A stretch of DNA of 64,000 bases from a virus. Shown here piece after piece: positions 10,177-24,971 of the stretch. The stretch's first letter is position 1. Every line of letters starts with the position of its first letter. The notes below the pieces were generated by a model, which did no database searches, was not told the origin of the DNA, and saw nothing but the letters and a program-made list of their open reading frames with translations. The stretch spans positions 32,001-96,000 of IMG/VR virus record IMGVR_UViG_3300025030_001854, one strand, 5' to 3'. The translations under genes were made by a program, and so were the position numbers.

Positions 10177-10253
10177 TGGTGTTCGCGGTTGGATTTGCAC
10201 CAACCTAATCTATCTACGATTACTTTTTTAGGAAAAAAGGTCGATACGCGAAC
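10177..10253 (-). tRNA. D-arm-less (rewired) tRNA-Arg(CCU)
   Basis: GUUCGCG-UAUCGAC-CUUUU-UUCCUAA-AAAAG-18 nt-GUUGG-UGCAAAU-CCAAC-CGCGAAC-A-CCA. Confidence 0.78.
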
Positions 10254-10865
10254 AAAAAATTATAAATTAACATCCATAATTGCTATCTTCTGGAGGAATA
10301 ATTAATGGTTCCAGTTTAAGGGTTTTCTTAAGAAGGTTCTTCTTAATAAGGACGCTTAAAGCTTTTGCTCTTAGATTAAATTCTCTTTGAGATTCTTTTC
10401 TTTTCTGACCTGCAAATTTTTTTGTTTTTCTTTCTTTTTTATTAAATTGACCTTGATGACCAATTCTCCATTTATCTCCAAGAGATTCTAATGGTTCACG
10501 ACAAATAGGACATAACCCATAACCCTTACGGCTATATTTATGCTTTTCGCAAACGTAATTTAAGTTTCTATTTCCAAACATACAATTTCATTTAATTAAT
10601 TTATATTTACTCTTAAGAAAATCAATACGAGTGGAATATTTAGAACTCTCAATAATTGGATTTCCTTCTATCTTCAGAAAGATATAACGGACTTCTGTTC
10701 TATCTTTATTTATAGCAACAATTTTAATGAAGGTATCTCCCCAATCTTTGTCTACTAATTCGTCACCAACAGAAATATTGGGACAACAGGATTTAGAAAT
10801 AATACTCTTTCCGTTAACAACAAAATTCCAAAATCTAGTAAAAATATTATTCATAATATATAAAT

Positions 10866-10943
10866 TGGTAGGATAGGAGGGATTCGAACCCTCATTAGTC
10901 CATTATGCACACATTGTTTAGAAGACAAGGCCATTACTATCCC
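10866..10943 (-). tRNA. D-arm-less (rewired) tRNA-Arg(UCU)
   Basis: GGGAUAG-UAAUGGC-CUUGU-CUUCUAA-ACAAU-19 nt-GAGGG-UUCGAAU-CCCUC-CUAUCCU-A-CCA. Confidence 0.8.
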
Positions 10944-11543
10944 ATTAAATTATTTAATTACTTTAAACTTTTATCGTCCTTTTCTGGGAGGATAAAAAAA
11001 TATAGAGCTTTTACAAACCTCACAGGTTTCTCTTGCGAAATCTCCATCTCTCTGGCATGACTCTATTTTCAGTTCCCGTTGAAAAGCTTCAAAACGAGAG
11101 AAACAATTAGGACAAGTACTAATCCAAATTTCTTCTGAAGGAGGATTGCCTCTAAAAACACATTTCATATTAAATTTTTTTCTCTATTTTCACCACCAAA
11201 AATTCTATATCTTTAGCAAAATGAAGAGTCTCCTGTTTATTTCTTCTCGCATCACGAATAGCTAATTTTTTATTTTTCCAGTTACTTGATTGAATATGCC
11301 AAGTAATAGGAAAATCTTCTCTGTTTCTCCAAAAAATTGTATAATTGATGGTAGATTTCATTTTAAATAATTCAGTTTTTTTTAATTTGATTTCGAGTTT
11401 TTAACACCCAGGCTGTCTCGACGATAGTATAACCATCTTGGTCACATACGCTATCCCATTCTCCAATAGATATAAGATAATCTTTCGCCTGTTGATAAGT
11501 TAGACCTTTTTCTTTTTCGAAGTCACTAATTTTCATTCAGAAA

Positions 11544-11619
11544 TGGAGTCCGCTATAGGAATCGCACCTATCAACCCTCGTTTTGCAGACGCGGTGTTTC
11601 ACTAGCCACACCAGCGGAC
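11544..11619 (-). tRNA. tRNA-Cys(GCA)
   Basis: GUCCGCU/AGCGGAC, U73, loop CU-GCA-AA, T-loop UGCGAUU, CCA. Confidence 0.88.
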
Positions 11620-12080
11620 ATTTTTATTCTTCATTAAAAGTCTTATCTTGGCATTCCTGGCAAAGGCCCGAAATCCTCGCCTCCTTACGGCTTAGAGTAT
11701 CTCGAAAAGGCCCATAAGGCTTTCGGCAGATTGGACAGACTTCTTTCCCGATGCTTTCCTGCCTATTTACACCAAAAATTTGGGTCAAAAGTTTATCAAT
11801 TGCTGGATTTTTCTCTGTCGGTTTCATAATATTCTTTAAATTAATTAGTTATTTTATCCGCCAAAGTTCTAAGAGCACCAGAAAGAGCAATTAAATCTTG
11901 CTTACGAACAGTATTAAGACAGAACGTAGATGCTACTGTTGAATCAGTTCGTTGCGTGACATCAAAAACCAAACTATGATAACAAAAATTTTTCATCTTG
12001 TTCTTCTTAAGAGTAAGAAAGACTACTGAATTATAGCTATTAATTACTACAGATACAGATTGTCGTTTCATAATCTTACT

Positions 12081-12374
12081 TTACTCCTGTTTTGGCTGCT
12101 CGTCAAGCCATTTTGCAATCACATCACAATGACACGACACTTCTTTATCGGCACGTTTACAATAACAGCCTAATTTTTCATCTTTTAAAGTTAAAACTAA
12201 ATCATAAAACCTTTTATCTTTAAGACAAAAATTAAACCATTTAGCAAATTTATTAATAACTTCTTCTCTTGTCCCATCTCTACCGATTTCAAAAGGATTA
12301 CCAAATATAGAACCCCTTCCACAGTACTCATAAGGAGTTTCTGAATAAGCTCTTATATTAATTACTTTTGTCAT
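12081..12374 (-). CDS. DUF4326-like protein
   Basis: YCGRGSIFGNPF...LGCYC...CHCDVI. Confidence 0.8.
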   Translation of the reverse strand: MTKVINIRAYSETPYEYCGRGSIFGNPFEIGRDGTREEVINKFAKWFNFCLKDKRFYDLVLTLKDEKLGCYCKRADKEVSCHCDVIAKWLDEQPKQE

Positions 12375-12381
12375 ATATATT

Positions 12382-12464
12382 TGCAAACGGGGAGATTTGC
12401 ACTCCCACGCTTTTTAAAGCCTAAGATTCTCGGTCTTAGATGTCTGCTCTTTCATCACGTTTGC
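12382..12464 (-). tRNA. tRNA-Leu(GAG)
   Basis: GCAAACG/CGUUUGC, loop CC-GAG-AA (C33), variable arm, T-loop UGCAAAU; CCA not encoded. Confidence 0.85.
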
Positions 12465-12923
12465 TCTATTTCTTACTCCATAATTAGAGGTTTGAGCATG
12501 ACAATTACAGCATAAAAGTTGAATATTGAATAATCTATTATCCTTATTATCTCCATTGATATGATGTAATTCCAAAGGAATATATAATGTATTCCATTTA
12601 ACCCGACCACATTTTTCGCATTGATGTTTTTTTAAACCCTCTTGAATCAATCTTTTTTTTAAACAATGACTACTAATTTTTATGCAATCTTTTACAAGAA
12701 AATATTCAATGGGTTTTCTGGTTGGAGCCCTTTTACCTCTCCAGATAGCTTGACCCAAAAAATGAGGTGCTTTTATTAAAAACTCTTCGGCCCTTTCTTT
12801 TATTCTTAAATAATTATGACTGTCTGGATACAATCCCAATTTAATACATACACTTCTCCAAGATTCTGAATTTTGAATCACAATATTTAATGTTTGAAAA
12901 TCAATTTGTTTTATCTTACCCAT
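12414..12923 (-). CDS. HNH homing endonuclease
   Basis: CEKC...LELHHINGDNKDNRLFNIQLLCCNCH; 3' end overlaps tRNA-Leu(GAG). Confidence 0.88.
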   Translation of the reverse strand: MGKIKQIDFQTLNIVIQNSESWRSVCIKLGLYPDSHNYLRIKERAEEFLIKAPHFLGQAIWRGKRAPTRKPIEYFLVKDCIKISSHCLKKRLIQEGLKKHQCEKCGRVKWNTLYIPLELHHINGDNKDNRLFNIQLLCCNCHAQTSNYGVRNRANVMKEQTSKTENLRL

Positions 12924-12980
12924 ACTGTCTAATAGTTACACGAAACAGTATGAATTGGGAATTTTCCCTATCTAAAAATT

Positions 12981-13071
12981 TGCGGGGTCTGAGATTTGAA
13001 CCTCAGTCCAGAGTGACAAGCTCTCTTGTATACCCTACTCGCCTTTCGGTTCTTCAGGGCCGCTCCCCCGC
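12981..13071 (-). ncRNA. tRNA-like RNA without an anticodon arm
   Basis: Acceptor GCGGGG/CCCCGC-A, T-arm CUGAG-GUUCAAAU-CUCAG, two internal hairpins (GCCCU..CC-GAAA-GG..AGGGU; ACAAG-AGAG-CUUGU). Confidence 0.6.
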
Positions 13072-13072
13072 G

Positions 13073-13474
13073 TCAGTAACCTCGGTAACAAACCGTTAAG
13101 TGTAACGGCCATTTTAAATCAGGTTTTAATCCTAATTCAGTTCTTATATGTTGAATAAAAGGACATTCCACTAATAACCAAAAATACTCTCCTAAAAAGA
13201 AATATTCATGGTCAGTCTTAATATCAGAGAAATATTTAAATTCAATTACTTTTCCTTCATATTTACCCCATAAAGGATGTTGATTAATTCCCCTTTCGTG
13301 TTTTCCAGGAAGAATCGTAACGTGGCTTCCGTGGTAAGAGGTAGAAGTTTTCTTGCCGATAAATCTTTCTACCCAAAATCTATAGTAATTAGCAATAGAA
13401 TGAGGACATTCTAAAATTATCCAATCATTCTTATATCTAATAACGCCTTTGGCGAAATAAAATTTTTCTTTCAT
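13073..13474 (-). CDS. 2H phosphoesterase family protein
   Basis: Two HxT motifs: SHVTI and LHLTV. Confidence 0.7.
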   Translation of the reverse strand: MKEKFYFAKGVIRYKNDWIILECPHSIANYYRFWVERFIGKKTSTSYHGSHVTILPGKHERGINQHPLWGKYEGKVIEFKYFSDIKTDHEYFFLGEYFWLLVECPFIQHIRTELGLKPDLKWPLHLTVCYRGY

Positions 13475-13723
13475 AATTCAATCCTTTCTGTTTTTTTCAC
13501 CAGATAAGTGAACGGTTCTACACTAAAACGTATTTGTTTTGTCGTCAAGGACTTTCCAAAACTAACGGCCCTATCACTTCACGACAATCATTAGATAATC
13601 TTAATTCTTTTATTCTTTTTAAACACTCTTTTTTAAAAGAAAATCTTTCAAACCGAACATCCCAATGTCCTTCCATTTGATTATACTCAAAATATTCTTC
13701 GTAAATAATAAAATACATAAATT

Positions 13724-13798
13724 TGGTAGTCCCGAACGGTCTTGCGCCGATACTTGCGAATTTTTGAAATTCGTGCCTCTGCTTTGGGCTACGGGACC
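13724..13798 (-). tRNA. tRNA-Leu(CAA), short variable loop
   Basis: Loop UU-CAA-AA, T-loop CGCAAGA, A73-CCA. Confidence 0.85.
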
Positions 13799-14451
13799 AT
13801 TTAATCTAAATTTTCTGGTTTAACTGGCCAACCAATACTTAAAAAGGATTCTAATTGCTCTCCCGCATTATATTTCCACTTAGGAGGTTCATCACAAATA
13901 GCGGAACAAAAATCCATTAATTGATACGCTGGAAGAGAAACTATTTGATGGATATCACTACCTAAAACTTTAGCCCCAATCTTATAAGCTATTTTTTCGG
14001 CGTCTTCTAAAGATTGAGCGGGCAAATGGAAAGCATATTTCCGATTTTCAATATCATATTCAAGTAAATACAATTTCACCATATTAATTTTTTAATTCAA
14101 ATTCAAGTTTAGTTAAAGTTTTCAAATTTAAATCTTTTTTCTTACATTCTTCACATCCATTTTTAACAAAGATTTCTGTTTTGTCTTTTGATGGACAACG
14201 GCATTGTTCTAACACTTTACCGCAACTACATTTTTTTATATAATGCATAGAGATTATTTTCCAATTGGCATAAACTCAATCACAAAATCTGTATAATCAT
14301 CAGGCAATAGCAAAATATTTCCATTGGATGTTACAATTGATTTACCAGAACGAGGATTTGCCCATGTTCCACCACCCTCACGAACAAAACAGTAAGTGTT
14401 ATCTACTTTAACTACAGAACCAATAGGTAAAGCTAAAATATTTTTCATAAA

Positions 14452-14528
14452 TGGTGAGATTAGAGGGCATTGCACCCTCGTTTACTGCTTGAGAAACAGT
14501 AGTCCTATTCTTCTTAGACGATAATCTC
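14452..14528 (-). tRNA. tRNA-Glu(CUC)
   Basis: GAGAUUA/UAAUCUC, loop UU-CUC-AA, T-loop UGCAAUG, CCA. Confidence 0.88.
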
Positions 14529-14873
14529 ATTTTAAGAACTACATACTAAACTACTAATTTTAGCTATAACAGCGGCATCAATATAGTCTGTATACTTTGA
14601 TGTTATAGTTGTATAAAAACAATCGCTATTATCTATTTTTAGTATTCCGGTGCTGTCAATTGGCGGTAATGGGCTTCCGACAATAGTATTTTGGGTTAAA
14701 GTATTTAAACGATTTAACTCTACTTTTTCAGCTTCTCCACTACTTACCCATAGACTAAAAAGCGAAAAACACTCAGGACAAACATTCAAAACTTCTTCTT
14801 TGGGTTTTTTAAGTTGAATAGCTTCGTTTTCGTTTTCTATTCTTGATTGGCAAAAAAAGCATTCCATAGTTAA

Positions 14874-14902
14874 AGATTAACCTGGAGTTGTTTGATTGTC
14901 AA
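14874..14902 (-). promoter_or_regulatory. sigma70-type promoter
   Basis: TTGACA-N17-TAATCT. Confidence 0.55.
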
Positions 14903-14908
14903 GAAAAT

Positions 14909-14979
14909 TGGTGGCAGGCTGGGGATTCGCACCCCACCGAATTCCTTATGAGAGAACTCTGGCCGCTAGACCGCTTGCC
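14909..14979 (-). tRNA. tRNA with CAU anticodon (Met or Ile2)
   Basis: Loop CU-CAU-AA, short D-arm, T-loop UGCGAAU, A73-CCA. Confidence 0.8.
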
Positions 14980-15098
14980 AAAAATAAGTGTAATATATTG
15001 TGAATTGAGATTTGAAATAGCTATAATTTTTAGCCTCCTTATGTGCCCCTTGGAAGGGAGCTTCTGGTTTCCAGTCTCAATTCACCATAAGGACGGCT

Positions 15099-15626
15099 AT
15101 GATTAATAATATGAAAAAATGTTCTAAATGTCAGCAATTAAAAAATAAATCTTTTTTTTGTAAAAATAAACGAGCAAAAGATGGACTTTTTTCCCACTGT
15201 AGAGACTGCCGAATAATTTATTATAAATCAATAACTACTATTAAAAAAGAAAAAATTAAAATTCGTCATAATATTCGAATGAACGAACGATTTGATAATC
15301 CAATAGAAGTAAGAAAAATTCGTTTAAAAACCTTATTAATTATATCAAGATATAGAGCTAAAAAAAGAAATTTACCATTCGATTTAGATAAAGACTGGCT
15401 AGATAAAAATACCCCCGATACTTGTCCAGCTTTAGGTATTCCTCTTATTTTTAATCCTAGATATGGAAACCATTCTTTTAATTGCCCATCAATAGATAGA
15501 ATAGATAACTCAAAAGGATATACTAAAGATAATTGTGTTGTTGTATCAAAAAAAGCTAATACTATTAAAAATATGTCTACTATATCCGAATTAAAAATGG
15601 TCGCTGATTTTTATTCCAAATTTTGA
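15099..15626 (+). CDS. HNH-like homing endonuclease, antisense to the array
   Basis: N-terminal CSKC..CRDC; CPALGIPL..PSIDRIDNSKGYTKDN. Confidence 0.85.
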   Translation: MINNMKKCSKCQQLKNKSFFCKNKRAKDGLFSHCRDCRIIYYKSITTIKKEKIKIRHNIRMNERFDNPIEVRKIRLKTLLIISRYRAKKRNLPFDLDKDWLDKNTPDTCPALGIPLIFNPRYGNHSFNCPSIDRIDNSKGYTKDNCVVVSKKANTIKNMSTISELKMVADFYSKF

Positions 15627-15948
15627 AGATTATTTATATCTTTTTCTTAAAAAGTTTAATAGACAACGTTCATCGCAAAAATTATATTGCTTGGTTTCCC
15701 CAGTGTCAATACCTGTTTCTAATGTAGCATCAATAGCTGGATTGGGTTTTTCTCCCTGTTCTTTTGTTTTCTTGGGTTTTGACGAATCAATAGACATTTT
15801 ACATTCGTCGCATTGAATTACCTTTTTCGCTATAACAGAAGGAATATCTAATAACCAAATTCCCTGCTTTTTAAATGTTTCGTCTATTAATGGCATATAT
15901 TGTCTATTACACAAAAAAACGTGTAATTTATATTAACCTTAAAATTTT

Positions 15949-16197
15949 ATGCCAGAAATTACTTTTACAATCACCCAAAATCGTTTTGATAAGATTCAAA
16001 ATGCAATGACATCTTACGCCGAATATAATCCTTTAGACCCAGCGGTAGACGAAAATGACTTTGCCAAAAAGGCTTTTTTGGCTATGCTGCAAGTTTATTT
16101 AAATAGGCATCGCCAAACCCGTATTGAAACGGTTAAAACTCAACTTTCTGAATGCTCAGATGCTACCTGGACTCAAATCACTGGTATTTTAGGATAA
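15949..16197 (+). CDS. hypothetical protein
   Basis: 82-aa ORF preceded by the GTGTAA motif. Confidence 0.55.
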   Translation: MPEITFTITQNRFDKIQNAMTSYAEYNPLDPAVDENDFAKKAFLAMLQVYLNRHRQTRIETVKTQLSECSDATWTQITGILG

Positions 16198-16308
16198 TAC
16201 CATACTATAACTAACGGGGGGAACATTTAATTTAATGTCCTTTTGCTGGGAAGACGCACATCCAGATAATAAAACAATTACAACTAATAGTATTAATAAT
16301 TTCATATT

Positions 16309-16845
16309 TTAAAATTTAATAAAATAACAAGACTCTATCTCTTCTTTGGTGAGAATTACTATCTTACAAGTTTGGGGCTCGTAAAAGCCTATTTTTACTT
16401 TTTCTTGTTCTCTATATAAAAAAATATTTATAGCATGTCCCTGCAATTCTTTAGTCTCATAAAGAAACTCCCCAAAAGATAAAGCCGTATTTTTTAATTT
16501 ATTAGGAGTATTATGGTGAAGATATTGGGCAAAAAAAGCAGAAAATCTTGCGAAATCATCACAATCATTTTCTTCAGCAGTCCAATTAGAACTTGCTAAT
16601 TGTTGTTTAAAACTAAAAAATGAGTCAGAAAAAGCTCCAGCCACCCAATTTTTACTTGGAACAGCGTAATTTCTGTCAGAATACATTGATAGAGAAGGAA
16701 TAATACCATTAGTGGCAAGATGAATTCTAATTTCTTGTCCAGTCATCTTAAACGTCGAAACTGGATGATTATCTTGTTTTGAACAACCAAATAGTAATAA
16801 AACACTTAAAATTATAACCGCTAATATACTCTTACCGATATTCAT
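16309..16845 (-). CDS. lipoprotein with papain/transglutaminase-like Cys-His motifs
   Basis: Lipobox LLFGC; DCDDFA and GHAIN. Confidence 0.6.
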   Translation of the reverse strand: MNIGKSILAVIILSVLLLFGCSKQDNHPVSTFKMTGQEIRIHLATNGIIPSLSMYSDRNYAVPSKNWVAGAFSDSFFSFKQQLASSNWTAEENDCDDFARFSAFFAQYLHHNTPNKLKNTALSFGEFLYETKELQGHAINIFLYREQEKVKIGFYEPQTCKIVILTKEEIESCYFIKF

Positions 16846-17105: not shown

Positions 17106-18110
17106 TTATTTTAATACAATAAGTAAAGTTCCTGGCACAAGATTTCTGTTCACAGAAGTACTTTGTATAAAGATATTATACTTATCATGACTTGCTGGCG
17201 AGACTTTAACCTCGTAGTCTGGTAAACCAAGAAGTTGCCGAGCGTTAGCTCCAGAATAGACTTTACCAGTTGTCTTTTCCTGAACTAGAATTTGTTTATA
17301 ATTTTGAACGCTTTCAGGTTTAGTAAGCTGAAAATAAGCAGAACCCTTTCGATAGGGTCGAGAAGTCCAACTTTCTACAAACGGCTGAATAACCGCTTTC
17401 CTCTGAACAGGGAAAACCTCAAAATCATTTATAGGTAATTCATCGAGAGTCACTTTTACAGCTTTCGTATTTAAAGTATTAGTATTTAATTGGAAAAGAC
17501 TCTTTGTGGAACGAATACCTTGGGAACGACCCAACATATAATTATCAGTTGCAGTCCTAATAACTTCTCCTACTTTAGTAACTCCATCAGAAGTAGTAGA
17601 CCAAATTTGAGTGTTCTCCAATGGGAATCCATAAGAAGTAGCATATCTTCGTCCCGAAGGGTCAGGAACTAAACACGCGAAAGTCCAATTATCCTTAGAC
17701 GTTTCAATCATTAATTTAAGCTTTTCGGGAGAATTTTTGCTACTATTTTCTTGACCATCAGTTAAAACATAAACTAAAAATGCATGGTCGGCATAGATTT
17801 CAGGAGTAAGACTTAAATCATCTGAAGCTTTAATTGTGGCATCAATAAGCGCCGTATTACCTGTTGCCAAATAATGCTTGGCGATACTTGGTAATCTCAT
17901 AACATCCATGTCATAAAGAAGGCAAGTGATGTCCTGATTAAACAAATAAACAGAAACTCTCGTTTCCTGATTCATCTCTTTGGAACGAGTCGCAAGGTGA
18001 GAAATTTGTTCATCGAATACCTTAACTACTTCACGAGAAAGTCCTCTCATAGAACCACTCTTATCAATGACAAATACAATATGATTAATATAATTTTGAA
18101 TTAAACTCAT
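17106..18110 (-). CDS. von Willebrand factor A domain protein
   Basis: MIDAS DKSGS, TALIDA, LTDGQENSS. Confidence 0.85.
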   Translation of the reverse strand: MSLIQNYINHIVFVIDKSGSMRGLSREVVKVFDEQISHLATRSKEMNQETRVSVYLFNQDITCLLYDMDVMRLPSIAKHYLATGNTALIDATIKASDDLSLTPEIYADHAFLVYVLTDGQENSSKNSPEKLKLMIETSKDNWTFACLVPDPSGRRYATSYGFPLENTQIWSTTSDGVTKVGEVIRTATDNYMLGRSQGIRSTKSLFQLNTNTLNTKAVKVTLDELPINDFEVFPVQRKAVIQPFVESWTSRPYRKGSAYFQLTKPESVQNYKQILVQEKTTGKVYSGANARQLLGLPDYEVKVSPASHDKYNIFIQSTSVNRNLVPGTLLIVLK

Positions 18111-18310: not shown

Positions 18311-18496
18311 TTGCGGGTGAGATTTTACTCACAACAGTTTTCAGGGCTGGTTAGGCTATATACTGCACCCAAACAGTTACGTCACACAATTCATAAAACC
18401 ATTCCTCATAACCAATTAAGGAACACGTTTGTATGCACCATGGCTCTCTTTCAGACCATGCCATAACTATCTGTCCATCTAATTCTGGCACCGCAA
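18311..18496 (-). ncRNA. ~185-nt RNA closed by a tRNA-like acceptor and T-arm
   Basis: UUGCGG/CCGCAA closure; GUGAG-UAAAAU-CUCAC arm at the 3' end; internal hairpins CAUGGUCU-GAAA.., UUCCUUA..UGAGGAA. Confidence 0.55.
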
Positions 18497-18514
18497 AATT
18501 ATTTAATCCAATAA

Positions 18515-18799
18515 TTAAAAATCTTTATCTACGACAGCAATCTTTAGTTTATTGCCAGTAGCCATTTTCACTAAATCATTAACGGTCTTTAATAAATTAT
18601 TTAAATCTTTATCGTCTTTAATTAGCTGGGTCACCCAACCCTCTCCGGTTGGTAACTCGCACCATACAAAACAAGCCCCTTTTTGTTCTCCAGCAAACTT
18701 TAAGATTCCACTTTTCTCTATTAATTCAATCATTTCTGATTGGACATCTGGAAGTTTATCTGTGTTAACTAATTTTTTGTCGATGGTTGTGATTTTCAT
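18515..18799 (-). CDS. hypothetical protein (possible paralog of 33067..33369)
   Basis: VNTDKLPDVQSE resembles VDVNQLTDRDAE. Confidence 0.5.
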   Translation of the reverse strand: MKITTIDKKLVNTDKLPDVQSEMIELIEKSGILKFAGEQKGACFVWCELPTGEGWVTQLIKDDKDLNNLLKTVNDLVKMATGNKLKIAVVDKDF

Positions 18800-18801
18800 A
18801 A

Positions 18802-18987
18802 TTAAATATGAATACTATTTAAATAAGACCAAAGCCCACTTACCTTAATTAGCCACAGAACTAGCAAAACAACAGTCGCTATATTAAGGATTTTCTTAAT
18901 CTTTCCGTCCATTGGAACATACAAATTAATTGCATACAGGGCCATTCCAATCAAAACTATAACCAACATAACTATAAATAATGACAT
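18802..18987 (-). CDS. small two-TM membrane protein (Thivi_2564-like)
   Basis: LYAINLYVPMDGKIKKILNI; start moved to MSLFIV because the upstream part lies in a tRNA. Confidence 0.6.
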   Translation of the reverse strand: MSLFIVMLVIVLIGMALYAINLYVPMDGKIKKILNIATVVLLVLWLIKVSGLWSYLNSIHI

Positions 18988-18991
18988 AAAT

Positions 18992-19065
18992 TGGTGGGAC
19001 TCCACGGTATCTCGCCGTGTTCTCAAGGTTAAAAGCCTTTTGCATCAATTTAATGCTTGAATCCC
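18992..19065 (-). tRNA. tRNA-Lys(UUU) copy 1
   Basis: Loop CU-UUU-AA, D-loop UAAAUUG, T-loop CGAGAUA, CCA. Confidence 0.85.
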
Positions 19066-19112
19066 ATTTTGTTTTAATCTCTCTTGTGTAGATTAAAAGT
19101 GTAAACACATAT

Positions 19113-19580
19113 ATGAAAGAACAAATTCTTAAACTCAGAGCTGAAGGTAAATCTTACGACCAAATTGTTTCGTTACTTGGATGTTCTTCTGCTACTGTTT
19201 GGTATCATTGTAACCCAACCGCAAAAAAAGAACGAGCCCGCCTCAATAGATTAAAAGATAAACTTTGGCATAAAAAAATTAAAATTATTTTTGGTGGTAA
19301 ATGTCAATCTTGCGGTTATCATCGCTGTCTTTCCGCTTTAGATTTCCATCACTATAATAACGATAAAACATATTCGGTCATGAATATTATTCGTATTTCA
19401 AAAGGTAAAGCAATACAAGAAGCAATGAAATGTATTCTTCTTTGTTCTAATTGTCATCGAGAAGTTCATAATAAAATGTTAGATATTAGTCATTTAGTCC
19501 CAAACATTCCTACTCAAGGACTTGGGAAAAGCGGACGACCATCAAAACTTATAGTAATGGCTAAAACCTTCAACCCATAA
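19113..19580 (+). CDS. HTH-HNH endonuclease, antisense to the array
   Basis: N-terminal HTH; CQSCGY..ALDFHH..KCILLCSNCHREVH. Confidence 0.88.
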   Translation: MKEQILKLRAEGKSYDQIVSLLGCSSATVWYHCNPTAKKERARLNRLKDKLWHKKIKIIFGGKCQSCGYHRCLSALDFHHYNNDKTYSVMNIIRISKGKAIQEAMKCILLCSNCHREVHNKMLDISHLVPNIPTQGLGKSGRPSKLIVMAKTFNP

Positions 19581-19815
19581 CTAATTTTTTTTCTTAGGAC
19601 CGCCATGCCTATAACAAGCTAATCCTGAGCAATATCCTGGCCACCATTTTCCATTAATAAATTCAACATAACGCATTTGGTCCTTTTCTTGAGGTCCATA
19701 AGCTTCTTCGTCGCAAAATCCATCGGGAAGACCGCCACTCCACATTGGGACAGAACAACGTCCTTTTCCTTCTGAATCTAATTCTTGATGATGTTTTGAA
19801 AGAGATGCCATAATT

Positions 19816-19889
19816 TGGTGGGCCTCCACGGTATCTCGCCGTGTTCAATTGGTTAAAAGCCAATTGCATCAATTTAATGCTTGAAGCCC
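19816..19889 (-). tRNA. tRNA-Lys(UUU) copy 2
   Basis: Same D and T arms as copy 1; AC stem AUUGG/CCAAU. Confidence 0.88.
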
Positions 19890-19937
19890 ATATATAACAG
19901 TATTTTCTTAAATTTTAAATTAAGAATTGTTCTAAAT

Positions 19938-20008
19938 TGGAGCCGCAGTAGGATAACGCTTCCTATCATTAAATTTACAAAATTCAATACCCTCTTAGGG
20001 ACAGCGGC
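19938..20008 (-). tRNA. tRNA-Thr(UGU) with miniature D-arm
   Basis: GCCGCUG/CUGCGGC, D-arm CCCU-AAG-AGGG, loop UU-UGU-AA, T-loop AGCGUUA, CCA. Confidence 0.72.
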
Positions 20009-20011
20009 ATT

Positions 20012-20114
20012 AAAAGGGTCATGAAACATGACCCAGTATTCTCTACGTCCAAGTCTTATCACGCATTTGTCCACGTTTCGAACCGTATCGTAACAGAGGA
20101 GAACATCGACTTGG
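20012..20114 (-). ncRNA. pseudoknotted small RNA with its own promoter and terminator
   Basis: CCAAGUC/GACUUGG, UUCUC/GAGAA, UGUUACG/CGUGAUA, ACG-GUUCGAAA-CGU; terminator GGGUCAUG-UUU-CAUGACCC-UUUU; TTGACA at 20142-20147. Confidence 0.55.
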
Positions 20115-20155
20115 TTATACTATCTCAAAAATTTGTGGACTTGTCAAACAAAAAA

Positions 20156-20232
20156 TGGTGCGCCGTGAGAATTCTGCCATCTCGTTATTTTTGCTTGGAA
20201 GGCAAATGCCATAGCTTCTAGGCGAACGACGC
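20156..20232 (-). tRNA. tRNA-Gly(UCC)
   Basis: GCGUCGU/ACGGCGC, loop CU-UCC-AA, T-loop GGCAGAA, CCA. Confidence 0.85.
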
Positions 20233-20251
20233 ATTAATTAATTTAAATTAG

Positions 20252-20323
20252 CTCCCTCTGATGGTAACGCTCCACCCTTTTCTGATTCAGAGTCAGTTGT
20301 AATAACTAATATACTAAGAGGGA
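20252..20323 (-). tRNA. tRNA-Gln(CUG)
   Basis: U1-A72, G73, loop CU-CUG-AA, T-loop AGCGUUA; CCA not encoded. Confidence 0.85.
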
Positions 20324-20337
20324 ATGAATCTGTTTTT

Positions 20338-20970
20338 TTATAATTGGGCTATGCCATCAAAAGTAATCCAAGGAACATAAGAATTTCCGGTTTCTGTATT
20401 ATTAACAGGCAAGTTCGCATATGTAGATTTACTTCCAAATTTTTGGAATCCTCCGCGATAAGCTGCCCCGCTATTTCCACTATTTGTTAATCTATATAAT
20501 CCGACTTCTACCACGAGAAGGTCGTAATTATCAAATTCAAAATAAGCACAATTACCAGAAAATGTTCTATTTTGTAATATTCCATAAGAAGTATTTTCAT
20601 ATTCTGAACCTACTGCTCCAGAAAACACAGTTTGTTTTAAACTTCCAGAAGGAGAATGAATAGAAATAGTAAGCGAAGTTTTATAATCACCAGCCGTCGA
20701 ATCTTCTCGGCCTTGAATTTGACCTCGAAATAATCCATTAATTGCTGCTGTTCCCATATTTAGCTGGGCAACATACTGTCTATTTAAAAAATTGAAAACT
20801 CCGGTATTAGGGAAATTTTTGTAAATTTCTTTAACAGAAGGAACTCCAGTTTCCGTCTTTGAACTACTTAAAACTTTTCTATCTCCAGATGTGGTAGCTG
20901 TCCAATAAGTAGAAAATGATGGCGAGGCAACAATGCCTGTTGATTGAGAAAAATAAAATGTATTACTCAT
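20338..20970 (-). CDS. hypothetical Ser/Thr/Gly-rich protein (possibly virion)
   Basis: 210-aa ORF with beta-rich composition; GTGTAA motif upstream. Confidence 0.55.
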   Translation of the reverse strand: MSNTFYFSQSTGIVASPSFSTYWTATTSGDRKVLSSSKTETGVPSVKEIYKNFPNTGVFNFLNRQYVAQLNMGTAAINGLFRGQIQGREDSTAGDYKTSLTISIHSPSGSLKQTVFSGAVGSEYENTSYGILQNRTFSGNCAYFEFDNYDLLVVEVGLYRLTNSGNSGAAYRGGFQKFGSKSTYANLPVNNTETGNSYVPWITFDGIAQL

Positions 20971-20971
20971 A

Positions 20972-21172
20972 TTAAGTATTACACTTATTCTTTCTCCATT
21001 TTCTCCATTCTACCAATAATAAAACAATAATTAAAGGAATTAAAATAAATACCCCACCAACTTCGGGAATAATTGGATAATGGGGATTATGAATATTGGA
21101 ATGACCATGAGGGTTTCCGTAATGATTTCCATTATTATAAATTGTTCCATAGGTGAGGCTGTTTGTTTCCAT
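20972..21172 (-). CDS. small His/Asn-rich membrane protein with PEP-CTERM-like tail
   Basis: IPEVGG + hydrophobic helix + WRKWRK. Confidence 0.45.
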   Translation of the reverse strand: METNSLTYGTIYNNGNHYGNPHGHSNIHNPHYPIIPEVGGVFILIPLIIVLLLVEWRKWRKNKCNT

Positions 21173-21198
21173 AACATCAGGTGTTTTGAGATATAAAA

Positions 21199-21272
21199 TG
21201 GTAGGCCGTACTTGTTACGCTCAAGTGAAAAAATCTCATCAGGATTCTATTTTACTATTAAATTAACGGCCC
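21199..21272 (-). tRNA. tRNA-Ile(GAU)
   Basis: GGGCCGU/ACGGCCU, loop CU-GAU-GA, T-loop AGCGUAA, CCA. Confidence 0.82.
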
Positions 21273-21331
21273 ATTAAAAGTCAGCTATGAGAACGCGATT
21301 CTCTTATAGTGGTAGTTGACGAGTCCACAAA

Positions 21332-21423
21332 TGGTAGCTCCATGCCGAATCTCACGGCCCAGCACCCCAGTCCGGGGATTATATTCGTTATAAGCGAACC
21401 CATGCAATTTACATCTTGGAGCC
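21332..21423 (-). tRNA. tRNA-Ile(UAU) with long variable arm
   Basis: GGCUCCA/UGGAGCU, loop CU-UAU-AA, variable hairpin CCCCGG..CUGGGG, T-loop UGAGAUU, CCA. Confidence 0.78.
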
Positions 21424-21436
21424 ATTACTAATTAAA

Positions 21437-21512
21437 TGGTCCCATTCCATCGTACTGCCCGATGACTTTCTGTGCTTCAAACAGACGTGCAGACTATCTA
21501 CACCAGAATGGG
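21437..21512 (-). tRNA. tRNA-Phe(GAA)
   Basis: CCCAUUC/GAAUGGG, loop UU-GAA-GC, T-loop GGCAGUA, CCA. Confidence 0.85.
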
Positions 21513-21514
21513 AT

Positions 21515-22099
21515 TTAAAAATGTTTTTGACTATGACAATTGGGACACAAATACATTAAATTGTTAATTAAATTATTTTTTTTATTTTCGTCTATGTGAT
21601 GAATTTGTAATTGAATTGGATTATTTTTCCAAGAATCAATACTACATTCAAAACATTTATAAGGAACATTATGAATATTCATATGCTTTTTAAGAGATTT
21701 TCTTGTTAATCTTTCCTGTCTAAGTATTGTTTTTTGATTTGTTAGTTGTGCGGTTTTTAAACCTCCGCGTTTTCTCCCATTATCACGACCAATAGAAACA
21801 TCAACATTTAACTTTAATAATCTTTTTTTATAATGATACCATGCTCCACCACTCATTCCGACGCCTAAATATAATAAAAATTGATTAATTGAATCACTCT
21901 CCCTCCAAACCTCTAACAACTTTTCATCCGAAAATTTAAAACGATTCTTTAAATATATATTTGGTTTCGTTTTTAAATTTAATTTTTTTAACCGATAACG
22001 TATTCCAGTTTCACTTAATCCCACATTGGAACTTAATTCTTTAATTGTTAAACCCTGGTCAATTAAATCTTCCAAAAACTTTCTTTCTAATATTTTCAT
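21515..22099 (-). CDS. HTH-HNH homing endonuclease
   Basis: CFEC..LQIHHIDENKKNNLINNLMYLCPNCHSQ; stop 2 nt before tRNA-Phe. Confidence 0.88.
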   Translation of the reverse strand: MKILERKFLEDLIDQGLTIKELSSNVGLSETGIRYRLKKLNLKTKPNIYLKNRFKFSDEKLLEVWRESDSINQFLLYLGVGMSGGAWYHYKKRLLKLNVDVSIGRDNGRKRGGLKTAQLTNQKTILRQERLTRKSLKKHMNIHNVPYKCFECSIDSWKNNPIQLQIHHIDENKKNNLINNLMYLCPNCHSQKHF

Positions 22100-22166
22100 A
22101 TCTCATATTACACCGAAACAGTGAATGTGAGAACAATAAATATCTCGCTATACTCAAAAAACTAAA

Positions 22167-22240
22167 TGGTCGGTCATGTCGTAATCCCAACGACCCCTTA
22201 TGCTCCCAAAGCACATGTGCTTGTTCAACACTTATGACCG
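22167..22240 (-). tRNA. tRNA-Pro(UGG)
   Basis: C1-G72, loop UU-UGG-GA, D-loop UGAACAA, T-loop UGGGAUU, CCA. Confidence 0.87.
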
Positions 22241-22243
22241 ATA

Positions 22244-22317
22244 TGGTGAGGCGTAACGGTAACTCTCCGCTTTAGCTAGTTTGTAATACTAGTGCATTAA
22301 TTTTATGCTAACACCCC
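22244..22317 (-). tRNA. tRNA-Val(UAC)
   Basis: Loop AU-UAC-AA, D-loop AAAAUUA, T-loop AGAGUUA, CCA. Confidence 0.85.
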
Positions 22318-22320
22318 AAT

Positions 22321-22449
22321 TTTTCAGAGAACAGACAACAACAGCTTTTTTAACGTGCTACTATTACACCAACGACTTTCGTCGCCTTGGATTTGCACCA
22401 AAACCTTTCGTTTGATAGACGATGAAACTGTTATTTACACTACTGAAAA
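22321..22449 (-). ncRNA. yrlA: Y RNA (YrlA-like) with permuted tRNA-like domain
   Basis: 5' CAGUAGUG..AACAGUUUCAUC / 3' GCUGUU..UGUUCUCUG stem enclosing T-arm (UGCAAAU), closed acceptor hairpin GCGAC-GAAA-GUCGU and D-arm GUGU-AAUAGUA-GCAC; Ro60 gene in window. Confidence 0.82.
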
Positions 22450-22523
22450 TGGTGAACGTTGAGAGAATCGCACTCCCGTCTCGGATATGTCGCACCCGCG
22501 CTTTTCTTTTAAACTAAACGTCC
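22450..22523 (-). tRNA. tRNA-Val(GAC)
   Basis: Loop GC-GAC-AU (C33), T-loop UGCGAUU, CCA. Confidence 0.85.
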
Positions 22524-22826
22524 AATTCTAAATTTTGTAAATAAGAATATTCGCAATGAGCTAATAAGGCTTCAAATAATTCTTCGTCTGTTACGTCTGA
22601 CAAATTTGTTTCTTCTTTATTCATAATTAAGCAAACCTTCCATTCTTACAAATATACTCATACATACTACAATCCGCCCCGCAACCTAACTCGAAACAAA
22701 ACCTAAACCCGACATGTAATACTTTATGCTTTGTTTTCATCCATGTCAAGCCGTTATTTTTCCATGGCTTTCCTATAAATTCAAGATTTTTATATTTATT
22801 TTTAATATCTTGAGAAACGTAAATAT

Positions 22827-23069
22827 TCATTGGTCAACTTTTCTGTAATTCTTTTGCCATAAACCTCTTGTAATAAGATTCGCGGCCTTAATAACTTCTT
22901 TTTCAGACATTTCATGAAATGCCTCATGAATAAGCTCATGGACTAAAGTATTTAAATAAGCTTTGGGTTTTTGTCTTGGGTCAATTTCTATTAAATTATC
23001 GCCCTGATAACACATTCCCCAGGCTTTGTTTCGGCCTAATTTTTTATCTATGATTTTAAGTTTGGCCAT
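22827..23069 (-). CDS. small HExxH zincin-like protein
   Basis: TLVHELIHE. Confidence 0.6.
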   Translation of the reverse strand: MAKLKIIDKKLGRNKAWGMCYQGDNLIEIDPRQKPKAYLNTLVHELIHEAFHEMSEKEVIKAANLITRGLWQKNYRKVDQ

Positions 23070-23203
23070 GACTTAAATTACACTAATAACTAGAGACGAT
23101 TCCCGATTCTCCACGTCTCACTTTCCTTCGGAAATATTTTATTTTCCCGCCTACTCGGAACATACTAATTTATTTATCGTATCTTTTATATGATAGTTAA
23201 AAA

Positions 23204-23278
23204 TGGTGACGGTGACAGGAATTGCACCCGCACTTGTTGGTGTCTAAAACCAATGCCTCTGCGTTGGGCTACACCGCC
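23204..23278 (-). tRNA. tRNA-Leu(UAG), short variable loop
   Basis: Loop UU-UAG-AC, T-loop UGCAAUU, A73-CCA. Confidence 0.85.
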
Positions 23279-23285
23279 AATAAAA

Positions 23286-23368
23286 TTACAGAGAACATAC
23301 AAATAAAGGTTTGCTTGTTGGCAGGCTTGGAGCCTAGTAGAAGTATCTTTATTTTATCGCTACTGTAA
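23286..23368 (-). ncRNA. Y-RNA-like (short, two-hairpin module)
   Basis: 5' UACAGUAGCGAU..AAUAAAG-AUACUUC / 3' CUUUAUU..UGUUCUCUGUA. Confidence 0.72.
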
Positions 23369-23369
23369 A

Positions 23370-23452
23370 TGGTAGCCAAGACGGGACTTGCACCCGTAAA
23401 ATTACGAAATTTTAAGTTTCGTTGCTGTGCTGTTCGCATTAATCACTTGGCC
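23370..23452 (-). tRNA. tRNA-Leu(UAA), short variable loop, enlarged D region
   Basis: GGCCAAG/CUUGGCU, loop CU-UAA-AA, T-loop UGCAAGU, CCA. Confidence 0.8.
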
Positions 23453-23933
23453 GTTTTTTATTTTTACTTTTATATGTAGATGTCTGCGCGTGACAATTTG
23501 GACATAAAATTTGTAGATTCTCTAAACGATTATCTGTTTTTATTCCATTAATATGATGCAATTCTAAGGGAATTTTCTGATTTTGCCACTCTCTTATTTG
23601 ACATATTTCACATTCATACTTTTTTAATTTTCTATCAAAAAGTCTATTTTTTAAATTATGAGAGGTTGTTTTAGATGGACAATTATCGGTTAACCAATAT
23701 TCAATTGGTTTCCAATTAGATGTTTGTTTCCCTCTTAATAATTTATTGTAAGACCGACCAACCCAATGAGAAACATCAAAATTATATTTTTGAACAATTT
23801 TAACAATTATTTTAAATTGACTAGAAGATTTCCCTGTCTGACCTAGTGATAACAATACCATTTTTATTGTAATATTATTTTTATCATTTATAGCTTTTAC
23901 AGCTTCTTCGTCAGTAAATTTTCTAGCACTCAT
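23439..23933 (-). CDS. HNH homing endonuclease
   Basis: CEIC..LELHHINGIKTDNRLENLQILCPNCHAQT; start adjusted to MSARK; stop lies inside tRNA-Leu(UAA). Confidence 0.88.
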   Translation of the reverse strand: MSARKFTDEEAVKAINDKNNITIKMVLLSLGQTGKSSSQFKIIVKIVQKYNFDVSHWVGRSYNKLLRGKQTSNWKPIEYWLTDNCPSKTTSHNLKNRLFDRKLKKYECEICQIREWQNQKIPLELHHINGIKTDNRLENLQILCPNCHAQTSTYKSKNKKRPSD

Positions 23934-23975
23934 ATATGTATAGATATACACACGTCTATGCTTATAGAGAAATAT

Positions 23976-24080
23976 TAATAGAACAAGCAATAAGAACGGC
24001 ACAATGCCAGTTTTCCCAATTACTAATTTGGCGGGAAAATTCGATTATGAGTCGAAGTATTTCTTATTTATCACTAATTA
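23976..24080 (-). ncRNA. Y-RNA-like with three-hairpin tRNA-mimic module
   Basis: 5' UAAUUAGUGAU-AAAUAAGAA-AUACUUC / 3' UUCUUAUU..UUGUUCUAUUA; inner UUCGA-CUCAUAA-UCGAA, UUUUCCC..GGGAAAA, GGCA-UUG-UGCC. Confidence 0.68.
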
Positions 24081-24085
24081 AATCG

Positions 24086-24158
24086 GGCGAACAACGAGGT
24101 TTGCACTCGCATAATCTTGATTCACAATCAAGGACATTAACGTTATGCTATATTCGCC
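24086..24158 (-). tRNA. tRNA-His(GUG)
   Basis: Encoded G-1:C73, loop UU-GUG-AA, T-loop UGCAAAC; CCA not encoded. Confidence 0.88.
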
Positions 24159-24164
24159 ATAAAA

Positions 24165-24293
24165 TGGTAGCCTGCCAGGAATCGAACCTAGTTTTAAATT
24201 ACTTTATCAACGTAGGCTTACTATAGATATCTTACATCTCAATTTCATTATTGTTGGTTATCTGACTTCCACAGAATACCCTCGTATCAGGCC
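24165..24293 (-). ncRNA. 129-nt tRNA-like RNA (acceptor + canonical T-arm + CCA, no cloverleaf body)
   Basis: GGCCUG/CAGGCU-A-CCA; CUAGG-UUCGAUU-CCUGG; ~100-nt insert. Confidence 0.62.
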
Positions 24294-24301
24294 ATAAAAT
24301 T

Positions 24302-24463
24302 AAAAAGCGGGCTTGCTCTCCAGCTTGCCCGCTGGGGGTGTAGGCTAATGGTTTAGCTTATTCCCTCCACCACTTATACAATTTCACAACATTTCGACCA
24401 CCGTCCGAAAATTCTCCCCTTCAATGAAGTCGGCTAGTAGTTGTGCTGGGTTTGCAGGTATAA
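24302..24463 (-). ncRNA. candidate structured RNA ending in an intrinsic terminator
   Basis: UUAUAC/GUAUAA and CACAAC/GUUGUG closing helices; UAAGCUAA-ACCA-UUAGCCUA; GCGGGC..GCCCGC-UUUUU. Confidence 0.45.
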
Positions 24464-24539
24464 TGGCCCTCTATGCGAGACTCGCACTCGCTACATATCT
24501 TAGACAGAGATATATGATAAACTCATTCAACAATAGAGG
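24464..24539 (-). tRNA. tRNA-Asp(GUC)
   Basis: CCUCUAU/AUAGAGG, G73, loop CU-GUC-UA, T-loop UGCGAGU, CCA. Confidence 0.85.
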
Positions 24540-24615
24540 ATGTGCCTTGTTTTATTTTTATGAGAGCAATGGACATTCTTTATTACCCATCCTGACAAGG
24601 CGGAACTCTCGGGTA

Positions 24616-24692
24616 TGGCGAACATAGAGGGACTCGCACCCACAATCTTTGCCTTCGCAGGGCAATGCTTTATCTAATTTAGCTATATGTTC
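24616..24692 (-). tRNA. tRNA-Arg(GCG)
   Basis: Normal cloverleaf, D-loop AAUUAGAUA (A20), loop CU-GCG-AA, T-loop UGCGAGU, CCA. Confidence 0.88.
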
Positions 24693-24696
24693 AAAT

Positions 24697-24887
24697 TTTT
24701 ACGGAACAATTAGACTCAGTTTTGTCTGTGCTTTTCATCCAGACTTGCCATTATTTTGTTTCTTAAACAATTTTTAAGAACGTCCATTTTTGCGTTTTTG
24801 GCGCTATGTTTATACGTCCAATATGACTTGAAAGCCATATTATTTTTTTCATTGATAAAGATGAAACTGATTCTATCACCAGTAAAA
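24697..24887 (-). ncRNA. Y-RNA-like (long, multi-hairpin module)
   Basis: 5' UUUUACUGGUGAUAGAAUCAGUUUCAUC / 3' ACUGAGUCUAAUUGUUCCGUAAAA; several small internal hairpins. Confidence 0.7.
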
Positions 24888-24971
24888 TGGTAGACACGGA
24901 AAGATTTGCACTTTCATTTTCAATTTCTAATTACCATTACTAATTTCGAAGATTAGCTGGATTACGTGTCC
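24888..24971 (-). tRNA. D-arm-less (rewired) tRNA-Arg(UCG)
   Basis: GGACACG-UAAUCCA-GCUAAU-CUUCGAA-AUUAGU-23 nt-GAAAG-UGCAAAU-CUUUC-CGUGUCU-A-CCA. Confidence 0.8.

Follow-up and report, generated by a model that had tools for sequence, protein, structure and literature searches.

The stretch of DNA analyzed here (64,000 nucleotides (nt), hereafter the window) comprises bases 32001-96000 of the 136.8-kb IMG/VR virus record IMGVR_UViG_3300025030_001854, which is ~71% complete and has a G+C content of 33%; DNA of the window is present in groundwater metagenomes. Its minus strand carries three tRNA-Arg-like genes, designated c1, c2, and c3, in which a short linker occupies the place of the D-arm and a long segment follows the anticodon arm. 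A preliminary description, made from the sequence alone, had reported D-arm-less tRNA-Arg-like genes with anticodons CCU, UCU, and UCG; all three proved to be real when examined by sequence, by a scanner that considers only structure, and by a covariance model (R1) of homologs from other phages. Their parts are as follows.

10177..10253, minus strand: c1, candidate rewired tRNA-Arg(CCU), 77 nt including CCA (sequence, scanner, R1)
10253-10247 and 10187-10181, minus strand: c1 acceptor strands, with U8 and A9 at 10246-10245
10241..10243, minus strand: c1 linker strand C-G-A, equivalent to D-stem 23-25, pairing with U-C-G at 10217-10219 in the R1 alignment
10239-10223, minus strand: c1 anticodon arm, anticodon at 10232-10230
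10205..10222, minus strand: c1 18-nt segment, consisting of UAA (44-46 equivalents), UCG (10-12 equivalents, 10219-10217), and a D-loop equivalent
10204-10188, minus strand: c1 T arm, loop UGCAAAU (G55), with A73 at 10180 and CCA at 10179-10177
10866..10943, minus strand: c2, candidate rewired tRNA-Arg(UCU), 78 nt including CCA (sequence, Rfam, R1, homologs)
10943-10937 and 10876-10870, minus strand: c2 acceptor strands (G1-U72 wobble), with the 7-nt linker UAAUGGC at 10936-10930
10929-10913, minus strand: c2 anticodon arm, anticodon at 10922-10920, one C x U mismatch in the stem
10912-10894, minus strand: c2 19-nt segment, with GCAU at 10908-10905 and AAUGGACUAAU at 10904-10894
10893-10877, minus strand: c2 T arm, loop UUCGAAU (U55), with A73 at 10869 and CCA at 10868-10866
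24888..24971, minus strand: c3, candidate rewired tRNA-Arg(UCG), 84 nt including CCA (sequence, Rfam, R1, minimum free energy (MFE) fold)
24971-24965 and 24898-24892, minus strand: c3 acceptor strands (G1-U72)
24964-24957, minus strand: c3 linker UAAUCCAG, 8 nt (7 nt with G26 counted apart), with strand C-C-A at 24960-24958
24956-24940, minus strand: c3 anticodon arm, anticodon at 24949-24947
24939-24916, minus strand: c3 24-nt segment, with U-G-G at 24936-24934 and then UAAUUAGAAAUUGAAAAU at 24933-24916
24915-24899, minus strand: c3 T arm, loop UGCAAAU (G55), with A73 at 24891 and CCA at 24890-24888

Architecture and detection of c1, c2, and c3

In each gene, a 7-base pair (bp) acceptor stem is followed by U-A, by the linker of 7 to 8 nt, and by a 5-bp anticodon stem whose 7-nt loop has U33 and A37 and presents CCU (c1), UCU (c2), or UCG (c3). 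After the anticodon arm come 18 nt (c1), 19 nt (c2), or 24 nt (c3). The T arm that follows has a stem of 5 bp and a loop of 7 nt, and each gene is completed by the 3' acceptor strand, A73, and a CCA that is encoded, as in most tRNAs of this phage. Apart from the single C x U mismatch of c2, the acceptor stem (7 bp), T arm (5 bp, 7-nt loop), and anticodon arm (5 bp, 7-nt loop with U33 and R37) are those of a regular tRNA, but the linker has no D stem-loop between positions 9 and 26. The short linker and the long segment had been noticed in the preliminary description, which gave 7 nt and 18 to 23 nt; the measured lengths are 7 to 8 nt and 18 to 24 nt. Written out, c1 reads GUUCGCG / UAUCGAC / CUUUU-UUCCUAA-AAAAG / 18 nt / GUUGG-UGCAAAU-CCAAC / CGCGAAC-A-CCA, and its D-loop equivalent is U-A-G-A-U-A-G-A-U-U-A-G, with A14, G15, A18-G19, and A20. 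For c3, AUUGA had been taken as the D-loop motif; the D-loop-like motif is instead UAAUUAGA (A18 G19 A20), and AUUGA is part of a conserved ...UGAAAAU tail that also occurs in relatives with U55 and GG. The layout of c3, UAAU..G..UAA...UGAAAAU, is common to a subfamily with 8-nt linkers (e.g., L277 and L248 from other phages). An alternative c3 fold offered by the scanner, with a 19-nt "D region" and anticodon AAU, was rejected, as it breaks the strong Arg anticodon hairpin and lacks family support.

The scanner required an acceptor stem of 7 bp, a T stem of 5 bp closing a 7-nt loop, an anticodon arm preceded by a linker of <10 nt, and a long segment behind that arm. Within the window it returned c1, c2, and c3 only, plus one alternative misfold of tRNA-His, and over 2.67 Mb of phage DNA it gave 87 matches versus 0 in the reversed sequences. 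Standard tools were less responsive. ARAGORN in standard mode detected none of the three genes. Against the Rfam tRNA family RF00005 (cut-off 29 bits), c2 (33.0 bits) and c3 (32.5 bits) scored above the threshold, in alignments where 15 D-arm positions were cut to 4 to 5 nt and 17 to 22 nt were inserted at the variable loop; c1 gave no RF00005 match even at E<=10. For a more specific model, 64 homologs from other phages were aligned with MAFFT (alignment A3). An earlier alignment (A2) had misplaced c1 and c3, and R1 was therefore built from A3 without them; it includes zero window sequences. When the whole window was searched with R1 with filters off, c2 scored 70.8 bits (E 2e-17), c1 48.4 bits (5e-11), and c3 47.3 bits (1e-10), and the next-best match was a cloverleaf tRNA at 25.3 bits. 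The R1 alignment of c1 marked no non-standard pair, and R1 found no rewired copies beyond c1, c2, and c3 in the 137-kb record. Matches of the scanner are thus beyond chance, given 87 versus 0 on reversed DNA and the small R1 E-values, and by the R1 model c1, c2, and c3 are members of a large phage tRNA family.

These data also bear on the notion that the three genes are decayed tRNA pseudogenes that lost a D-arm and gained junk. The failure of c1 and the bare passage of c2 and c3 in the RF00005 search, the anticodon-stem mismatch of c2, and the G1-U72 start of c2 and c3 would suit decay. Yet three independent copies share one precise layout and retain intact CCA ends, and more than 100 relatives in other phages exhibit compensatory changes in four helices, with E-values down to 1e-20; we regard pseudogenes as very improbable.

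A covarying linker helix and a proposed displaced D-loop

Since the acceptor, anticodon, and T helices of A3 had been scanner requirements, the pairing of linker with segment provided the only unbiased test of the structure. Linker bases 4-6 (-4 to -2 from the 3' end) complement the three bases immediately before an invariant U-A of the segment. In A3, pair 12-45 was formed in 64/64 sequences (CG 40, UA 22, AU 1, GC 1) and pair 13-44 likewise in 64/64 (GC 44, AU 11, CG 7, UA 2), whereas pair 14-43 was formed in 38/64, with five types, and 21 of its 26 failures were a fixed G x G of the subtype to which c2 belongs. All three pairs vary on both sides. When the c2 subtype was set aside, leaving 42 sequences whose linker lay outside the search pattern, 122 of 126 cells were paired with 13 helix types, compared to 77.2±4.5 cells after shuffling (0/5000 shuffles as high), and slid registers gave only 27-40% paired over full cell counts. 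Similar results were obtained for 111 family members (A4, described below), in which the three pairs were formed in 111/111, 110/111, and 72/111 cases, and for a separate search that left the linker unconstrained (pattern 2, below), where among the matches listed 45 of 49 distinct tRNAs had all three pairs, with 14 helix types.

The pairings that the preliminary description had proposed for c1 (CGA/UCG) and c3 (CCA/UGG) are exactly the covarying positions; both are fully paired and differ by one compensatory swap, and the strand pair of c1 recurs in another phage (L249). For c2, AUG/CAU had been suggested; its U-A and G-C pairs hold up, and its A-U pair does not, since all four bases occur at that linker position across from an invariant U. 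The linker helix of c2 is accordingly U-A, G-C, and G x G, as throughout its subtype. An additional UAAU/AUUA helix put forward for c3 found no support in homologs, where U8-A9 is nearly invariant and unpaired, and it brings no gain in stability (-14.7 kcal/mol vs -15.1 kcal/mol for the rewired fold). The rewired fold is the MFE structure of c3, the only copy of the three for which this is so.

The covariation is informative about a second alternative, namely that the genes encode plain D-arm-less tRNAs of the mitochondrial kind, or that the segment folds on itself as a variable-arm-like hairpin (i.e., the whole D-arm moved), with the linker unpaired to the segment in either case. In the RNAfold MFE structure of c1, the segment does pair with itself over 5 bp (UAAUC/GAUUA), which places the UAGA motif in a hairpin loop. 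When segments were folded alone, 11 of the 111 reached -2 kcal/mol or better (c1, -2.3), and a rewired tRNA-Arg of another phage (L255:702-777) can enclose its D-loop-like stretch by pairing GUGU/ACAC. In contrast, 59 of 111 segments had no self-structure (c3, 0.0), hairpins where present lie at positions that are not conserved across the family, and it is the linker/segment helix that covaries while self-pairing does not. To our knowledge, mitochondrial D-arm-less tRNAs have no D-loop-like GG/A20 element. We consider this alternative improbable, though less so than decay.

Beyond the helix, several bases known from the tertiary contacts of regular tRNAs are conserved. Within A3, U8 and A14 were each present in 64/64 sequences, exactly 4 nt separate the anticodon stem from the 10-12 strand in 55/64, and the base after A14 combined with the last base before the T stem was A-U in 63 and G-C in 1, the pattern of the 15-48 pair. 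The genes c1, c2, and c3 share the family motif (U8-A9, U-A-R followed by R-G-A, and an Arg anticodon), with A-G-A in c1 and c3 where the family has G-G-A. This substitution is related to a peculiarity of the phage, whose only cloverleaf tRNA-Arg serves as a comparator.

24616-24692, minus strand: tRNA-Arg(GCG), cloverleaf, 64 bits, D-loop AAAUUAGAUAA, T-loop UGCGAGU, with A18-G19-A20 and G55 as in c1 and c3

Of the 29 tRNAs of this phage whose T-loop is 7 nt long, 28 have G55 in place of the near-universal U (e.g., UGCRANY, CGCGAUA, and AGCGUUA), and their D-loops have AG instead of GG. The only cloverleaf with U55, a tRNA-Met at 27216-27292, keeps GG, and c2 likewise combines U55 with GGA. 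Among the 111 family members G55 is found only in c1 and c3, and exactly these two have A-G-A in the displaced loop. The wording of the loops is also close: AAAUUAGAUAA in tRNA-Arg(GCG) and AAUUAGAAA in c3 have AAUUAGA in common. Because A18 and G55 co-occur in c1 and c3, the displaced loop has changed in step with its T-loop partner, the behavior expected of a true D-loop. This tracking of a phage-wide change from G18/U55 to A18/G55 amounts to a natural experiment, and it is difficult to account for if the displaced loop does not dock on the T-loop. No literature on G55 phage tRNAs was found by full-text searches, with subscription journals and supplements outside their scope.

We propose that two blocks of the tRNA core have exchanged places, so that the canonical order 8-9, [10-21], [22-47], 48, T arm would become 8-9, [22-47], [10-21], 48, T arm. 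After U8-A9, the 22-25 strand would run straight into the anticodon stem; behind that stem, 3 to 4 nt (44-47 equivalents) would lead to the 10-12 strand, which would pair back to the linker, and then to U13-A14-R15-..-R18-G19-A20-..-A21, N48, and the T stem. The predicted product is a three-way junction of the acceptor stem, a long hairpin that combines the anticodon stem with a D-like helix stacked on it, and the T arm, with a single-stranded "D-loop." Regular tRNAs stack their D-stem on the anticodon stem, positions 22-25 being continuous with 27-31 and 10-13 lying in line after 39-44. By geometric reasoning from this standard fold, the swapped order would close the stack as one long hairpin and leave the D-loop free to reach the T-loop. 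The normal stacking order and the arginyl-tRNA synthetase (ArgRS) determinant A20 would thereby be kept, and the contacts U8-A14, 15-48, and 18/19-55/56 would still have both partners. The RNAs are therefore expected to adopt the usual L-shape, to be charged by the host ArgRS, and to decode normally. The three-dimensional fold, processing, aminoacylation, and decoding of c1, c2, and c3 are thus predictions from their sequences. A D-loop and a D-stem strand located 3' of the anticodon arm, with the linker as the other strand and A20 kept, had been conjectured in the preliminary description; this arrangement agrees with the covariation, with U8, A14, and R15-48, and with the GG-A of Arg members versus the GG-U of Ile and Val members.

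The swapped core likely arose when the 10-47 block was duplicated in tandem and the 10-21 part of the first copy and the 22-47 part of the last were then lost. A rewired tRNA-Arg(ACG) at L255:702-777 has a 10-12 strand, GUG, that is complementary to CAC both in the linker and after the D-loop-like stretch. It could also close a real D-type hairpin and may represent an intermediate of such a duplication. The preference of the family for arginine would then come from one tRNA-Arg(UCU) ancestor combined with the demand for AGR decoders in AT-rich phages.

Distribution, arginine identity, and codon demand

Unannotated look-alikes of c2 were found in an uncultured phage of 735 kb and in cultured phages that infect Streptomyces, Rhodococcus, and Pseudomonas; they have the linker UA(A/U/C)UGGC and a segment with ..GCAUAAYGGA... 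Streptomyces phage Gilson and Pseudomonas phage vB_PsaM_M1 are cultured carriers of the family. Among the GenBank homologs examined, two lay in unannotated DNA, one in an annotation-free record, one under a "hypothetical protein," and one under "tRNA-OTHER." Two patterns were then used on IMG/VR. Pattern 1 combined the c2-type linker and segment blocks with U33 and R37 and left the anticodon free. It matched 81 places, 77 of which parse as complete tRNAs (52 distinct: UCU 33, CCU 12, UCG 7); the remaining 4 fall below a stem threshold and have UCU or UCG loops. Pattern 2 consisted of a UCU loop, GUAAYGGA, and the T-loop, leaving out the linker, and matched at least 118 stretches. The matches listed comprise 99 distinct rows, and 49 of these could be parsed as tRNAs; the 50 that could not are mostly chance or coding sequence, with six that resemble the same tRNA just under the stem threshold. 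In species-representative bacterial and archaeal genomes, pattern 1 gave 44 matches, only 4 of which are real tRNAs, all on contigs of metagenome-assembled genomes (MAGs). The other 40 do not parse as tRNA, and about half of them have in common one conserved coding stretch of Bacteroidota genomes (e.g., L312-L318). Bacteroidota chromosomes were accordingly rejected as carriers of the family; because its blocks coincide with this coding stretch, pattern-only searches in cellular genomes are mostly false. At the resolution of these pattern scans, the rewired family looks phage-borne.

Application of R1 to 84 sources yielded the 111 members that make up the model-fitted alignment A4, with 98 Arg, 11 Ile (UAU 7, GAU 4), 1 Val (UAC), and 1 UCA anticodons. 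Non-Arg members with the swapped core include those of other phages at L013:2956-3032, L248:11181-11259, L049:743-823, L058:10637-10713, and L260:440-527; the UCA member would read UGA and keeps A after GG. The bacterial Arg identity set, as outlined in PMC9976931, comprises A/G73, A20, C35, and U/G36. All three genes of the window have A73 and C35, position 36 is U in c1 and c2 and G in c3, and an A follows the 18-19 dinucleotide in each. By automatic count over A4, the base after GG or AG is A in 96/98 Arg members versus 1/13 non-Arg members, and the Ile and Val members have U after GG. The A of the Arg members fits A20 as the bacterial ArgRS determinant. Of the two features of homologs on which the preliminary description had staked its reading, linker/segment covariation was found as described (122/126 cells), and a bias toward Arg anticodons was equally evident (81/81 pattern 1 matches, the anticodon having been left free).

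The anticodons also correspond to the needs of the phage. In 94 long open reading frames (ORFs), AGA accounts for 49% of Arg codons, CGA for 15%, AGG for 12%, and CGG for 4% (together 80%), and c1, c2, and c3 are the phage's only decoders for these four codons, filling the only gaps in its decoding set. With tRNA-Arg(GCG), the four tRNAs (GCG, UCG, UCU, and CCU) cover all six of the six Arg codons.

An alternative to decoding is that the RNAs are uncharged, non-decoding mimics, either decoys for tRNA-Arg anticodon nucleases of the colicin D kind or variants selected mainly for escape from such enzymes. Phage tRNAs that counter tRNA-targeting defenses are an established theme, and the restriction of the family to phages in our scans (81/81 IMG/VR matches, versus 4/44 matches in genome contigs, on MAG contigs only) and the perfectly Arg-like anticodon loops would be expected of decoys; the unusual G55 elbow across the phage tRNA set also hints at pressure on tRNA recognition. 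A decoy needs only an anticodon arm, however, and the family keeps a covarying 7-bp acceptor stem and 5-bp T stem, the discriminator, U8, A14, 15-48, G18G19, and A20, with the acceptor, T, and core features being what charging and the EF-Tu and ribosome steps require. The match of the anticodons to codon demand, with c1, c2, and c3 filling the only gaps of an otherwise full tRNA set, likewise argues for decoding. We therefore disfavor decoys as unlikely, but the alternative retains more weight than the self-folded segment; nuclease escape is compatible with normal decoding, and that half of the alternative could hold together with our preferred explanation.

This explanation is that c1, c2, and c3 are functional elongator tRNA-Arg species for AGG, AGA, and CGA/CGG, respectively, from a phage-borne family with non-cloverleaf connectivity, which on the sequence data we judge to be quite probable. 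Several observations weigh against it. In the covariation analysis, one side of the first linker/segment pair was fixed by the search pattern, and the sequences of A3 and A4 are related, so that cell counts overstate the number of independent events. The third pair of the c2 subtype is G x G (21/64 in A3), or else C-G with a bulged G; one member of the subtype has A for that G, which fits the bulge. Energetically, the hairpin of c1 described above is favored over the rewired fold by 1.7 kcal/mol (-18.1 vs -16.4 kcal/mol), and the helix provides no gain in c2 (-13.6 vs -14.1 kcal/mol). In c1, position 15 is G and the base immediately ahead of the T stem is also G, so that this copy lacks a Watson-Crick-type 15-48 pair. 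Close relatives of c1 and c3 were not found: blastn matches among GenBank phages were limited to fragments of the T arm and chance similarities to coding sequence, and an IMG/VR pattern drawn from their shared features matched 105 stretches, 0 of which parse as tRNA (coding or chance). The structure of these two genes thus rests on homology with the family. Finally, the sequencing runs that match the locus are groundwater and soil DNA metagenomes, several possibly from the source sample, with no RNA run listed among them. Four sequencing runs over the locus gave identical DNA, with zero variants in c1, c2, and c3. Apart from these points, three distant records related to the phage through a neighboring gene have ordinary tRNAs and no rewired member by R1 (best 33.5 bits).

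Genomic setting and relation to known tRNAs

The three genes belong to a block of ~35 minus-strand tRNA genes for all 20 amino acids that extends from ~8 to 30 kb of the window, with small ORFs and HNH endonuclease genes scattered between them. ARAGORN detects 12 of the ~35 tRNAs, as does Rfam at the gathering score, and the tRNA set is unusually divergent by this measure. The fourth Arg gene had been described as a normal cloverleaf, and so it is (24616-24692, 64 bits); this sole cloverleaf tRNA-Arg of the phage has anticodon GCG, not ACG, the usual bacterial anticodon for such a tRNA. Other features in and around the block are listed here.

21515-22099, minus strand: HNH endonuclease gene within the tRNA block
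23439-24002, minus strand: HNH endonuclease gene within the tRNA block
24962-25765, minus strand: HNH endonuclease gene within the tRNA block
31536-32942, minus strand: TROVE/Ro60-like protein (PF05731, 71 bits), beside the tRNA block
17106-18110, minus strand: vWA-domain protein, likewise beside the tRNA block
38560-38942, minus strand: tmRNA (Rfam, 109.8 bits), tag AKSKLVKKLASMRVITLERETVMA as called by ARAGORN

The HNH gene at 24962-25765 terminates immediately upstream of c3, such that the stop region of the one and the first bases of the other overlap. No Y-RNA family scored at the Rfam gathering threshold within the window, and neither ArgRS (PF00750) nor a CCA-adding enzyme (PF01743) was found in the 137-kb record, which is ~71% complete.

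Compared to an ordinary class I tRNA-Arg (RF00005, e.g., 24616-24692), c1, c2, and c3 have in common the stems and loops, U33/R37, U8, A14, R15, 18-19, A20, C35, U/G36, A/G73, and CCA. They differ by having the 5' D-stem strand and the D-loop after the anticodon arm, by the lack of a D hairpin, and by a three-way rather than four-way junction. Nor do they have the self-paired variable arm and normal D-arm of class II tRNAs. Metazoan mitochondrial tRNA-Ser(AGY) and the minimal tRNAs of nematodes and mites (reviewed in PMC4394434 and PMC2797822) are D-arm-less as well. They resemble c1, c2, and c3 in having a short connector for the D-arm and are working tRNAs despite a broken cloverleaf. In these mitochondrial molecules, a longer helix on the anticodon side generally makes up for the absent D-stem, the D-loop and elbow contacts are lost, and the variable regions are short. 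The phage family, in contrast, keeps a D-loop equivalent (A14, R15, GG, A20) in a new place, belongs to a bacterial translation system, and has an 18 to 24 nt segment that bears the D-loop-like motif.

Segment order also departs from the textbook in the permuted and split tRNA genes of Cyanidioschyzon and Archaea, where the 3' half is encoded ahead of the 5' half and a normal cloverleaf is regained by processing (PMC3218864). In c1, c2, and c3, the acceptor strands keep their usual order and enclose the whole gene, and only internal blocks are swapped. No circularization could therefore undo it, and we infer that the mature RNA must itself be non-cloverleaf. Allo-tRNAs and other 8/4 or 9/3 tRNAs (Mukai et al., PMC5389517) offer a further parallel, being mined from metagenomes of bacteria and phages, missed by standard finders, of non-standard architecture, and in some cases equipped with Arg anticodons. 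These keep a D stem-loop and a long V-arm and alter the acceptor/T split, whereas c1, c2, and c3 keep 7/5 and alter the connectivity of the D-arm. Neither a description nor a name of the swapped layout turned up in the same full-text searches.

Cloverleaf segment order is treated as universal outside organelles. Here, a widespread and covariation-supported family appears to have a permuted core with its tertiary partners all kept. If this is true, the L-shape would be attainable with another connectivity within ordinary bacterial translation. We also entertain, as a speculative and rather doubtful extension, that the swapped-core tRNA is a working topology kept for doing what a cloverleaf tRNA-Arg cannot (e.g., being chargeable by the host ArgRS while escaping host enzymes or defense nucleases that recognize the D-arm or core of tRNA-Arg), and that the A18-G55 elbow marks the phage tRNAs as a distinct pool. 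The family would also account for the "missing" AGA, AGG, and CGA decoders of phage tRNA sets, which seem missing because standard finders miss or mislabel the rewired genes, and it would provide tRNA engineers with a natural alternative scaffold.

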